Source: Octopus vulgaris (Eukaryota). From it: 64,000 nt of DNA. Shown here one piece after another: positions 21,444 to 40,824 of the stretch. Made by a program: the position numbers and the translations under genes. A model generated the notes under the pieces. It saw only the letters and a program-made list of their open reading frames with translations. It searched no databases and was not told the DNA's origin. Location of the stretch: NCBI GenBank assembly GCA_951406725.2, contig OX597836.1, positions 23,560,001 through 23,624,000 of the forward strand, in the 5' to 3' direction. The stretch's first letter is position 1. Each line of letters starts with the position of its first letter.

Positions 21444-21580
21444 TAGGGAAAATTTACGAAAAACACAAAAGACGAAGACAGGTGGTGTACAAAACAAACA
21501 GATGTATTAGTATAACGCTCAGGAATAGAAAAAGTCTTTTACGTTTCGAGCCTACGCTCTTCTACAGAAAGGTACACAGT
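21444..21580 (-). mobile_element. short element family H copy 1, minimal hammerhead-like motif at 21536-21571
   Basis: Minus: CTTT CTGTAGA A GAGC GTAG GCTC GAAA CG TA AAAG. Homologous to 38268-38465 and 40657-40824; flanked by (TA)n. Confidence 0.75.
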
Positions 21581-22892
21581 ATATATATATATATATATAT
21601 ATATCAGAGGCGACTGCAGGTCATCAGCGTTACTCAGGCTTATCACAGATTTCGTCACTCGAGTTCACCACAAATTTTGTATAAGACACATGCCTACTCG
21701 AAGAATTTAAAGTTATTTTAGGCTTTAGCTCTAATCTTTCTCCATTTCTAAGTTAAGGGTAAAAATAAAGTAACCCTGCAAAACATAACCGATCTCTACA
21801 CACAGACGCACAGAATAACAGCAGTCAAATAACGACAGCAGGGTGCATAACAAACATCAGCGATCTGACTGTCACCTGTACTCTTGACAAGAGATGCCAG
21901 TTAGTCTTTTACACCTAACAGGCTCGTTGGTATTAGCCCGATTTGCTCGATAGTTTTTCGTTCCTTTAAGAATACTGTAGAACAGAAACTTTTCATAGAT
22001 TGGAATTTAAATCCTAATATCTACAGAAATTTATTGTTTCAAGAAGAGATTGAATTTGAATTACTTTTAATGTTTACGATTATAAATGACAAGTCGGGCT
22101 GTAACTTCTGAGCCCGAGTTACGCGCGTGTGAATGATGTCGAGAGAACGTCTGTTACGCATGATATTTTTTGGCAAAGGGCACCTCTAAGACGACCGCCA
22201 GACGCTGAACGGAAATAAATGAACTGTGACCAGGTTCAATAAAAGGAACCCGAGTTATTGGCTGCAATTACATACTTGAAGTCAGTTTTAACAAAAATGC
22301 AATCAGCTTGCAAATACACGTTCACTTTACTAAATTTATACCCGAGTGCCGGGGTCGCCATGATTATATATATATATATATATATATATATATATATATA
22401 TATATTGGAAGGTTTGGAGATGATGTACAGGTATTTTATATTAGAAGAAATTCGGTACTCAGAAATTCGGATGGTTTAATATTTACAGATATTTATTTGT
22501 ATATTACATGTTTTTATACATCATATATTGTTTTTATACACACACACACACACACACACACACACACACACACACACACACACACACACACACACACATA
22601 TATATATATATATATATATATATATATATATATATATATAAACAATACATCAAAACAAAGGAAAATACGTGCGCGTGCACACACACACACAAATATATAA
22701 CGGATTTCTGCACAATTTCAGTCTACCAACTTTCTTTTGTAGAAAACACTACTCTAAGGTGTTGGACAGCAAGATGGAACTCTGGAACCCGTGCTTGCAA
22801 CAGCGACCATTTTTTAACCCTACAGTTTTACATATACCTAGGTTTGTGTATCTAACAATTGGGAAATAATAGTGGATGTAAAATGAACCAAC

Positions 22893-23170
22893 CTTTTTTA
22901 AGGATGTCCAACTGGTACTGTCCAAGAGTACAGTTCCATCTCTCATATCGAAATTGTTGTTGACAACCCAGCACTGACAGTTTTATGGCTTCGTTTAGAA
23001 CTTCGGGAACACCTTTGTCTCTCTTGCACATTTTCTTTTGTTTTCTTTGTAGTTTGAATATGTTACAAAGCTGAGCTGGCTTTAAATGGCCGTTTCTTAT
23101 TCTTTCTTGTATAATGTTTTGGTGCGGTAAACCCAGTTCGTAGCCTACAAGAGGTTCCTTTGATGTTAAT
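22893..23170 (-). CDS. Wnt9: Wnt9 coding exon 2 (N-terminal Wnt domain)
   Basis: Acceptor cttcttattaacag|A completes the Gly codon. Translation: LTSKEPLVGYELGLPHQNIIQERIRNGHLKPAQLCNIFKLQRKQKKMCKRDKGVPEVLNEAIKLSVLGCQQQFRYERWNCTLGQYQLDILKK-G, donor AAAG|GTTGGT. 278 bp, no stops, with the Wnt signature CQxQFRxERWNC and Wnt9-like KL.RKQ..MC.RD.GV.E.L. Confidence 0.96.
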
Positions 23171-23407
23171 CTGTTAATAAGAAGAAAGTCAGAACTAAAA
23201 TGGTGATGGTCTTGAAAAATCGGAACCTTATAAGATAAAAGAATTTCTTTACGATTTTGTGAAATTATAAATATATTGAAATATATAAACTTTCAATAAG
23301 GTTGCGATAAGACAAAAAAAGAGAAAAAAAAAGCAAAGTATTTTTAATATAGAAGGAAATCGTAAGCAGAGAAATATGGTTTTTTTCTTTTATATCTCGT
23401 GGAGTTA

Positions 23408-23601
23408 TTTTGTTGTGTCTGGGGAGAGTCGCGGTGCCTTAATATAAGACACACTCACCGGTTCAGTTTCCACTCATTTATTTAATTATTCCAGAAAAGC
23501 TTTTCGTCGCTGCATTTGCGACCGTATCAATGAATTTCGACTCTGACTGTCTGAGTGTGTCATATTAAGGGATCACGACTCTCCCCAGACACAGCAAAAT
23601 T
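23408..23601. mobile_element. element with short inverted repeats and a degenerate hammerhead-like motif on the minus strand
   Basis: tttgttgtgtctggggagagtcgcg and cacgactctccccagacacagcaaa are inverted. Internal minus-strand GTCGC-aaatgca-GCGAC GAAA AGCT TT. A related fragment lies at ~48030-48110. Confidence 0.55.
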
Positions 23602-24007
23602 TGGTTCAACACACGAATTCACATAAGGTATCTTGCAAACCAGTTATATGTGAAGTTAGAATTTATCAGAATAAAACAACAAAATTACTGCAGGCTTCTG
23701 TGAGTTCGGGATAAAAGTTTAGCGTTGAAAGTAGAAAACTATCATCAGAATTATTTTAAAGGAGAGAGAGAGAGAGAGAGAGAGAGAGAGAGAGAGAGAG
23801 AGAGAGGGAAAGAAAGATAGATAGATAGATAGATAGGTAGAGAGAGAAAGAGGGAGAGACAGACAGACAGAGCGGTGGGGAATTCTTTTCTGCTGTATTG
23901 CTGACGTCATCAGTGTTCTACTTGAGAGTTTCTAGATGAAAATTTGCTTCGCCCAAATCAGCAGCCAAACTTCAAATAAAATTCCACTCTAAATCCTTAA
24001 ATAAAAG

Positions 24008-38465: not shown

Positions 38466-38467
38466 GT

Positions 38468-38745
38468 AAGGTCATGAGTTTGATTCTCGGTGGCGCTGTG
38501 TCCTTGGGCAAGACACTCTATTTCATGTTGCTCCAGTCCACCCAGCTGGCAAAAACGAGCAGTGCCTGTATTTCAATGGGTCCACCCTTGTCACGTCCTG
38601 TGTAATACTGAATGTCACTGTGAACTGCTTCAAGAGCGTGAGTGTCGACGGAAACTTCAGTCACTTGGACATTAATTTCAGGTTCAGGATGCTCCGTTTA
38701 TTGTATTAATTGCAACAGTCGTCGTCGCAAACGGTGGAGAGCCAA
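38468..38745 (+). mobile_element. old CORE-type SINE
   Basis: gagtttgattc..., tgtgtccttgggcaagacact..tttcatgttgctccagtccacccagctg; tail cgtcgtc...ggagag similar to 42257-42541. Confidence 0.6.
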
Positions 38746-39487
38746 ACCATACACATACGGACAATTTGATCGATTAAAACCCATCATGGTGGTGCTCCAA
38801 TATGGTCGCAATATGACTAAAACAGTAAAAATATATTATGTATAGCCATATACAGTACACACACACACACACACACAAAGACATATGTATATATGAAAAA
38901 ATCATGCATATACATGCATATACACATATATATGTGTATGTATGAATGTATGCATGTATGTATGAATGTATGTATGTATGTATGTATGTATGTATGTATC
39001 TATCTATCTATCTATCTATCTCTCTATCTATCTATCTATCTATCTATCTATCTATCTATCTATCTATCTATCTATCTATCTATCTATCTATTTATCTATC
39101 TCTCTACTTCTTAAAGGGCCGTAAGTCACATAAGTGACTCAGGGGCCGAAAGTTCCGTTCATTGTCATCTATCTATATTTATGTAACTCTATCTTGTGGA
39201 AGAGTTGCCGCTCAGCGTTTTCGAACTCGGAACCACCGAGTTATGAAACAAACTCCTTAACCACAAGTCACTCTCTTTCTCTCTCTCCCACTTTCTTCCC
39301 TCTCTCTCTCATCTTTCTCTGGTTCTCCCTCTACTTCTCTGTCCGTGTAAATTTCACGCCGTCCTCACTTTCTCCCTCCTTACAGACACACATATATACC
39401 TACATACCTACATACATATTCATAGGCAAACACACACACACGCGCGCACCCCCACCCCCACCGCATATATGTGTTTATGTATGGGGG

Positions 39488-40432
39488 CAGATGTGGCCCT
39501 GTGGTAAGAAGCATGCTTCCCAACCACATGGTTCCGGTTTCAGTCTCACTGCGTGGCACCTTGGGTATGTGTCTTTAATTATAGCCTCGGGACGACCAAA
39601 CACTTGTGAATAAACTGAAAGAATTCCATCTTGTATATATATCTCTTTATATACTTATACTTTTACATCTTTACTTTTTATTATATTTTATATTTTATTA
39701 TCCTTTATAATTATATTTATATTTATGTATATTTTCTTTTTTGTGACCCCCAACTTCATTAACGTTTTCATCCCCTTCTCCTCCTTTCCCTTTTTTCTCT
39801 TTCTCTCAACATCCAATTTCTTCCCTTACATGAAGGAATCTACACAGTATTCATTCTATATCGAGTGAAAAAACGGTATGGACGATTTGTTTTGGAGTCT
39901 AATAATACCATGTACGCCTATGAAGATTTACAAACATACTCTCCCAATGATACCCGGTTTACCTACCATTATAAACAATACCAAATGTTTTTTCTCAAAC
40001 CCTTTGTAATGTGATACAAGTCTTTGGTGTAGCAATTGTACGCGGCTGAAGAAGGCTTTTGAACTATCTGTAATGTCGATTATGCATTGATGTAAGAATA
40101 AGTTGTTCTATAAAGCCCGAAACATATGTACCGCAACATCCTTTGTGTCCTGTTTTGCATTTATTTCATTTGATACATACATATATATATATATATGTGT
40201 GTGTGTGTGTGTGTGTGTGTGTATGCCTACATATGTATAATGTCCGCGCACGTCTTTGTGCCGGTGTTTGCCCCCACCCACTGCTGGATGGTAGTGGGGG
40301 ACAAACCGGTGTCCGTATTTTTACGCACCCATAACTTAGCGGTTCGATGAGTCGGTTCGCTCGACGGAAATATTCTTCCAGGCAGCGCTCCAGCATGACC
40401 GCAGTCTAATGACTGAAACAAGTGAAAGATGA
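39488..40432 (+). mobile_element. SINE family A split at its internal microsatellite by a ~0.5-kb hammerhead-bearing insertion
   Basis: Left arm 39488-39630, insert ~39640-40170, right arm ~40260-40432 (aacttagcggttcg...ctccagcatgaccgcagtc.aatgactgaaacaagt). Confidence 0.7.
40042..40134 (+). ncRNA. type I hammerhead ribozyme, near-canonical
   Basis: GCGG CTGAAGA A GGCTTT...AAAGCC C GAAA CATATG TA CCGC. Stem I GCGG/CCGC, stem II extended by GAAC/GTTC, palindromic ACATATGT, GUA triplet ending at 40130. Confidence 0.82.
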
Positions 40433-40656
40433 AATAAATATATGCATGTGTGGATAAGTGGTTAAGAGGTTTACTGTGCAACAATGCTGTCGTGGGTAGG
40501 ATGCACGAGATCATGGAATGAGCCGTGGTTTGGTGAACCTGAGCCGTGGTTTGGTGAACCTGGAAGAAGAAATTGGACTCAAATTTATCGTGTGTGTGTG
40601 TGTGTGTGTGAGTGTGTGTATGAGGGTGTATATGTATATATATATATATGTATGTA

Positions 40657-40824
40657 TATCGCCATGATAGATCGTTAGCCACTACACACATTTTTTTTCT
40701 CCTTGTTTTTTCTGTGTCCCTTTCTGTAGAAGAGCGTAGGCTCGAAACGTAAAAGAATTTTTCTATTCCAGAGCGTTTGTACACCACCTGTCTTCGTCTT
40801 TTGTTTTTTTTGCAAACTTTCCCT
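40657..40824 (+). mobile_element. short element family H copy 3, hammerhead-like motif at 40720-40755
   Basis: CTTT CTGTAGA A GAGC GTAG GCTC GAAA CG TA AAAG; TA-rich repeats on both sides. Confidence 0.75.

Follow-up and report, generated by a model that had tools for sequence, protein, structure and literature searches.

The window analysed here is a stretch of 64,000 nucleotides from Octopus vulgaris (assembly GCA_951406725.2, contig OX597836.1, positions 23,560,001 to 23,624,000 of the forward strand), which holds three copies of a short repeat, each with a 36-base motif like the minimal hammerhead of Penelope-like elements (PLEs), as well as two coding exons of the host gene Wnt9 (Table 1). 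In all three copies the core reads CUGU where the known minimal hammerhead core reads CUGA, that is, U stands at position 6 in place of the normally invariant A6. The role of PLE hammerheads is in itself an open question, since they are described as cutting poorly in vitro and some PLE clades go without them (PMC4209133, PMC8557442). A successful family which keeps every core base but A6, and in which variation is limited to two free positions, is a natural experiment on the function of PLE hammerheads.

Table 1. Positions of the repeat copies, their hammerhead motifs and the host exons, counted from the first letter of the window
Feature	Position	Strand	Remarks
Element copy 1	21446..21580	(-)	5'-truncated, with 9 bases ahead of stem I; (TA)n runs on either side
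Element copy 2	38270..38463	(-)	longest, 194 bases; 3' end followed by TGT(TA)n; alignment reference for family contigs
Element copy 3	40659..40823	(+)	internal deletion of ~21 bases in 3' part; between (TA)n-rich runs
Minimal hammerhead motif, copy 1	21536..21571	(-)	U6 at 21564, N7=A at 21563, predicted cut after A17 at 21540 (from hammerhead numbering)
Minimal hammerhead motif, copy 2	38365..38400	(-)	stem I 38400-38397 with 38368-38365; core from C3 38396 to A9 38390
Motif of copy 2, further positions	U6 38393, N7=U 38392, extra A 38389, stem II 38388-38377	(-)	
Motif of copy 2, 3' part	GAAA 38376-38373, then CG, U16.1 38370, A17 38369	(-)	
Minimal hammerhead motif, copy 3	40720..40755	(+)	U6 at 40727, N7=A at 40728, predicted cut after A17 at 40751
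Wnt9 coding exon 1 (host)	44854..44949	(-)	
Wnt9 coding exon 2 (host)	22893..23169	(-)	

A variant minimal hammerhead in three copies

The 36-base motifs of the three copies differ from each other solely at N7 (A, U and A for copies 1, 2 and 3), and the inner 26 bases are matched three times in the window with at most three mismatches, against 0.00 expected in 100 shuffles, so that the three copies reported by the initial annotation are real. Its description of the flanks as carrying indels and substitutions also holds: besides the deletion in copy 3, 15 of the 76 ungapped flank columns vary in the three-copy alignment, whereas the motif has a single variable column among its 36 (post hoc Fisher test, p=0.012). 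A relaxed minimal-hammerhead descriptor, applied to both strands of the window, found the three copies and one weak 3-bp match, and the same descriptor gave 0-3 matches in each of 10 shuffles. Another stretch, at 5885-5937 (+), reads CTGAGGAA...GAAAC with short complementary arms and lies just before a retrotransposon fragment described below; it is taken as a chance or decayed motif because it fails the hammerhead descriptor.

In each copy a short stem I (CUUU/AAAG) flanks the core, which is CUGUNGA in three of three copies versus CUGANGA...GAAA...UH in the minimal hammerhead, the remaining core bases all matching. Stem II (GAGC/GCUC, with the 4-base loop GUAG) forms in all three predicted monomer folds, an extra A stands between A9 and G10.1 together with the G10.1-C11.1 pair, and the palindrome ACGU replaces stem III in the layout A15.1-N-N-U16.1. 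The extra A and the ACGU remnant of stem III had been put forward as oddities of the family; they are present in the copies, but their strangeness was overstated. According to the survey of Cervera & De la Pena 2014 (PMC4209133), in which the consensus of the PLE minimal hammerhead is CUGANGAH, an extra base after A9 and a stem III of the ACGU type are standard, and the G10.1-C11.1 pair and a palindromic 15.2-16.2 likewise belong to the features of the class. The analogy drawn earlier to the CChMVd viroid is therefore unneeded, since the extra A is a feature of the PLE minimal hammerhead. What is novel is U6 only, the extra A and the missing stem III being ordinary for the PLE class, and we file the motif as a variant, not as a plain member, because it lacks the CUGANGA core.

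Other readings of the same letters were considered and rejected. A shift of register, with U inserted after G5, would leave C3 facing an A at position 8, and it is also contradicted by the only four-way variable site of the family, which is N7 in the original register. A ribozyme on the opposite strand is rejected too, as the descriptor scan of both strands found no core there. Rfam gave no hammerhead match among the 150 matches listed of 263, nor among the three from a local scan, and its microRNA matches are microsatellite artefacts.

Variation across the family

A search of public sequence runs with copy 2 listed 24 runs under four organism labels, 20 of them with at least half of its words. 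The contigs of four of the 24 runs, one per organism label, were aligned to 38268-38466 and differences were listed from 2%; these contigs overlap, are depth-weighted and lack rare variants, and a likeness of 80% to copy 2 was required of them. The numbers aligned per run were 13,441, 8,558, 8,847 and 5,498, which means distinct pieces in thousands and is not a copy number. Three copies per 64 kb would scale to about 100,000 per genome of ~2.7 Gb, which we take to be the size of the octopus genome, a rough figure drawn from one window.

At position 6 (38393) no letter but U reaches 2% in any of the four runs, while at the neighbouring N7 (38392) U makes up 40-50%, C 20-30%, A 21-23% and G 1-13%, and an A at position 6 would have shown as readily as the changes at N7. 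The family consensus is therefore CUGU and not CUGA, and since U6 holds family-wide, the copies are not decayed CUGA copies. Thus the suggestion that A6U is a fixed trait of the family is borne out, and the opposite outcome which the initial annotation had foreseen, a CUGA consensus, is not what the contigs give. In the same four runs, no alternative of at least 2% was found at C3, U4, G5, U6, G8, A9, the extra A, G12, A13, A14, A15.1, C15.2 or U16.1. Position 17 is A or U, with U in 18-33% and G or C always below 2%. The remaining changes in the motif are of CpG type at a stem II C (1-2.5%) and at G16.2 (to A, 4-7%), and the outer G of stem I shows other letters at 3-6%.

Non-CpG variation within the motif hence concentrates on N7 and N17. 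It is precisely N7 and the cleavage-site base, which is not G, that working hammerheads leave free. If the alternative letters were spread evenly over the 36 sites, 4 or more of 5 non-CpG ones would fall on N7 and N17 with p ~5e-5, a rough value from a test whose sites were named from hammerhead knowledge. Moreover, the depth on the motif is 2.2-4.2 times that of the 3' flank, and at the two edges of stem I contigs break away from the reference, 222-396 per run at 38400 and 276-463 at 38361 among the loose ends listed. The consensus of these departing contigs can be aligned to the flanks of the window copies, though it differs from them in several places (computed on the 5' side, by eye on the 3' side with an agreement of ~0.56), and they likely represent a sister subfamily in which the motif was kept and the flanks drifted. 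Most aligned contigs are 90-99% like the reference and 9-21% of the flank sites differ between window copies, a divergence by which the family is not very young. Overall, U6 characterises the family as a whole, and the motif around it gives the appearance of being under selection.

Anatomy and insertion of the element

Copies 2 and 3 share one 5' start base (TCGCC...), and all three copies have a CC-rich tail. The observation that the 3' ends meet (TA)n is confirmed for three of three, each within a few bases, with short spacers in copy 1 (TAGATG) and copy 2 (TGT); the chance for three such ends is about 7e-6. The hammerhead of copy 2 sits in the middle of the element, 95 bases from the start and about 100 from the end, and the window copies are single units, not tandem ones.

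The family contigs give a similar outline. Their depth declines stepwise from the motif to the common 5' start and is near zero beyond 38463, and at 38270 two of the runs have loose ends (49 and 33 contigs) whose letters go on into (TA)n; this evidence comes from the 24 loose ends listed of 470, and the repeat may still extend into an open reading frame (ORF). One contig, in one of the four runs, links 38287 through five letters to 38463 in head-to-tail order, with a unit of about 182 bases. A 3' end at (TA)n and variable 5' truncation with no clear target duplication are PLE-like, though not unique to PLEs. Such an anatomy is what target-primed reverse transcription would be expected to leave: the element is short, its start is defined and its 3' end fixed, and copies are truncated on the 5' side. 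The unit of about 190 bases could be non-autonomous in its own right, or it could be the pseudo-long terminal repeat (pLTR) part of a longer PLE. Copies 2 and 3 have at their 5' start a very short frame, ending in AMLNR or AMIDR and a stop, which may be the end of a PLE ORF. The stretch immediately preceding the start of copy 2 (38464-38560 (-)) may resemble a short interspersed nuclear element.

Genomic surroundings

The frame at 22852-23292(-) matches Pfam wnt, and its exon peptide has 96% identity to Wnt-9a of Octopus bimaculoides and 84% to that of Argonauta. Copies 2 (sense) and 3 (antisense) lie within intron 1 of Wnt9, and copy 1 (sense) within the intron after exon 2; a tblastn search of the 64-kb window found no later Wnt9 exons. 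A long mixed trinucleotide repeat occupies 45051-45430, about 100 bases upstream of the Wnt9 start codon.

An abundant interspersed family of about 400 bases, often split by microsatellite, occurs in at least eight places (5009-5407, 20076-20228, 24009-24474, 33514-33909, 39493-39612, 47554-47870, 55616-56003 and 63244-64000). At 48460-48730 there is a fold-back of about 270 bases with two long inverted arms between (TA)n runs, similar to a miniature inverted-repeat transposable element, and a one-armed relative of it lies 5.5 kb away at 42965-43150. A broken fragment of a retrotransposon without long terminal repeats (non-LTR) at 5893-6576 (+) has a weak match to zf-RVT (E 0.002, short of the curated cut-off), followed by a stretch that resembles a restriction-like endonuclease by eye. 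In addition, 56126-56978 and the related pieces 1488-1772, 2924-3031 and 36853-37090 look by eye like fragments and flanks of a mariner transposase, with no Pfam match at E 0.01, and the frame at 58530-58913 (+) resembles by eye the end of an RTE-type retroelement, without a Pfam match.

A proposed slow ribozyme and its alternatives

The family, with its (TA)n-adjacent 3' ends, has a fixed U6, a free N7 and A or U at position 17. We consider it an even call that this abundant octopus repeat of about 190 bases, likely derived from a PLE terminal repeat, carries in its U6 motif a slowed, dimer-dependent self-cleaving RNA. By analogy with established PLE biology, the reverse transcriptase and the GIY-YIG endonuclease of an autonomous PLE would copy the RNA into (TA)n sites and leave variable 5' truncation. 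Two motifs would pair via ACGU, rebuild stem III and then cut after position 17, and the cutting would be slow because changes of A6 are known to lower the rate. Slow cutting would suit a short element with its sole hammerhead in mid-template, as well as a host with many intronic copies. As every window copy spans the predicted cut site, the template should have been either uncut or religated, and because the cut site lies mid-element, slow cutting would spare the template.

Several observations weigh against this explanation. In a scan of single and double mutants of a type III hammerhead, as reported for that construct, changes in the CUGA turn other than a swap of C3-G8 were low and none was rescued (Roberts 2023, PMC9901934), so that U6 on a minimal frame may be dead. 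Nearest-neighbour folding, which ignores core contacts, gives -10.9 kcal/mol for the double-hammerhead dimer; alternative dimers reach -20.6 to -23.4 and a pair of monomers -12.6 to -17.0, and these modelled dimer energies would count against efficient unaided cutting. No PLE coding sequence was found beside any copy; the Pfam scan, which covered 9 of the 105 window ORFs, showed no PLE domain. U6 at 98% or more of the aligned depth is a family-level and not a per-copy figure because of the contig sampling and the likeness limit, and an alignment to copy 2 would have passed over any CUGA family built on another stem II. Stem covariation is seen in 0 of 11 pairs among the window copies and in none in the family contigs. 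Finally, the initial annotation had expected a motif better conserved than its flanks, and the evidence is divided: the depth peak and the contigs departing at the motif edges agree with it, but the share of variable sites in alignable contigs does not, being 5/36 in the motif against 9/97 (and one insertion) in the 3' flank and 4/66 in the 5' flank, counts that are biased low for the flanks since diverged flanks get clipped.

The low and unrescued mutants and the disfavoured dimer fold would also suit a non-cleaving fold kept as a cis signal, where U6 silences catalysis and a PLE protein or a host factor binds the motif in reverse transcription or packaging. This is rather unlikely in our estimate, even though all copies span the cut site and a cut in mid-template would destroy the template of 190 bases. 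Furthermore, Naiad PLEs are described as thriving without canonical hammerheads, so that cutting seems inessential to PLEs (PMC8557442). The signal does not account for G8, G12 and all the other core bases being unchanged, nor for a position 17 that avoids G as in cleaving hammerheads, which is a weak point as it comes from two alleles. G8 and G12 are the residues regarded as catalytic, and we know of no protein that binds PLE hammerheads.

The flank counts and the missing covariation would fit another possibility, namely a neutral relic, in which a founder master copy gained A6U, lost its function and was amplified, the apparent conservation being that of a recent burst. The flanks of alignable contigs hold as few variable sites as the motif, and at a flank-like rate the absence of change at one given site is unremarkable. 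However, across the four organism labels there are four alleles at N7, two at N17 and none at the other core sites, the sister subfamily with diverged flanks seems to retain the motif up to the edges of stem I, and the family is older than a very recent burst would have it, so that we think a relic improbable. Selection on U6 itself is less sure than selection on the whole motif; taking N7 as the measure of neutral change makes it likely, and taking the flanks as the measure leaves it unproven.

A third possibility is a core that is rewired and fully active: U6 would have gained a new partner, the extra A or the GUAG loop perhaps, with cutting on a par with other PLE minimal hammerheads. The invariance of U6, though its neighbour N7 took all four bases, suggests that U is preferred and not just tolerated. 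Still, we rate this core as improbable too, for a compensating change is not visible, the rest of the core is canonical, and the double mutants gave no rescue within the CUGA turn, albeit in a construct without the extra A (PMC9901934). Repair of U6 by RNA editing is rejected, since A-to-I editing cannot convert U to A.

It is a tentative and somewhat unlikely idea that U6 is positively required, which would make the family a rewired lineage of perhaps tens of thousands of copies, either a pseudo-ribozyme serving as a Penelope retrotransposition signal or a core active against the published rules. If this is true, such lineages may be common in animals, and they would answer what PLE hammerheads are for. 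If the motif is even weakly active, many sense intronic copies (two of three here, in Wnt9 introns) could in principle affect host transcripts.

Relation to known hammerheads and elements

The octopus motif resembles the minimal hammerheads in pseudo-LTRs of metazoan PLEs (PMC4209133) in its type I layout, a stem I of 3-4 bp, the extra base between A9 and G10.1, the G10.1-C11.1 pair, the palindrome in the place of stem III, the U-rich 5' flank and the thousands of dispersed single copies. A high copy number is in itself common among PLE hammerheads. Those hammerheads are reported as inactive as monomers and weakly cleaving as multimers only (PMC4209133), and the same class was described by Lunse et al. 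2017, as cited in PMC6765202. Judged by these likenesses of sequence, the octopus motif would work like, and descend from, the PLE minimal hammerhead. The difference is U6, since A6 stands in 56 of 56 rows of Fig. S3 in that survey (PMC4209133); a U6 family would escape it, because its descriptor fixed the catalytic boxes. A6 also stands in 34 of 34 rows of File S2 of Craig et al. 2021 (PMC8557442), a search that started from the CUGA descriptor. Surveys built on CUGANGA, as these sources describe them, are blind to U6 at the core, and abundant U6 families would go uncounted.

Among individual elements, the Neptune hammerhead of Acropora digitifera (Fig. S3, PMC4209133) is closest in appearance, with a very similar pyrimidine-rich leader, a 4-bp stem II ending in GCUC, a 4-base loop and a CG palindrome, but differs by its canonical CUGA core and C17. 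Neptune PLEs are microsatellite-biased (Craig 2021, PMC8557442), and assignment to the Neptune clade is a lead which this short resemblance may offer. Hydra-1_oBim and the Naiad PLEs of Octopus (PMC8557442) share with the repeat the host genus and the insertion preference for (TA)n, whereas the hammerhead of Hydra-1_oBim is a canonical CUGA one whose stem III has 4 bp and whose remaining stems differ. They were rejected as partners of the repeat, for no words are shared: eight words from the motif and its flanks gave no relevant match in the supplement of PMC8557442, the lone match there being one 10-base word within unrelated-looking sequence.

Non-LTR retrozymes (Cervera & De la Pena 2020, PMC7229834; Li et al. 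2026, bioRxiv 10.64898/2026.07.22.740005) are comparable as short, non-coding, hammerhead-bearing units in the same size range, and are thought by these authors to be derived from PLE terminal repeats. They differ in their tandem units, mostly canonical type I hammerheads and circular RNAs, whereas the window copies are monomeric, with one head-to-tail contig. As for wider occurrence, pattern matches of the motif in viral (37) and metagenome (5) collections were all without core and stem I, the motif pattern had 0 matches in prokaryotic genome contigs, and 0 of 103 viral matches of a generic CUGU-core pattern had both stems. Neither a natural A6U hammerhead nor this octopus family was found in the literature searched, which did not cover Lunse 2017, Arkhipova 2017, Repbase and Dfam, any of which may contain either; the main text of a 2026 paper on O. 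vulgaris repeats mentions neither hammerhead nor ribozyme.

Substitution at a normally invariant core base is known from other natural hammerheads. The A6C hammerhead of phage Bcep176 cleaves at less than 0.1 per minute (Perreault 2011, PMC3088659), a low rate that can still be detected and that speaks for the slow ribozyme proposed above, and Cercyon PLEs of Schistosoma have a U3-A8 core (PMC4209133). As reported, the former is a single phage sequence in a full hammerhead and the latter a compensated pair; the U6 of octopus, by contrast, is uncompensated and fixed in a high-copy animal family.

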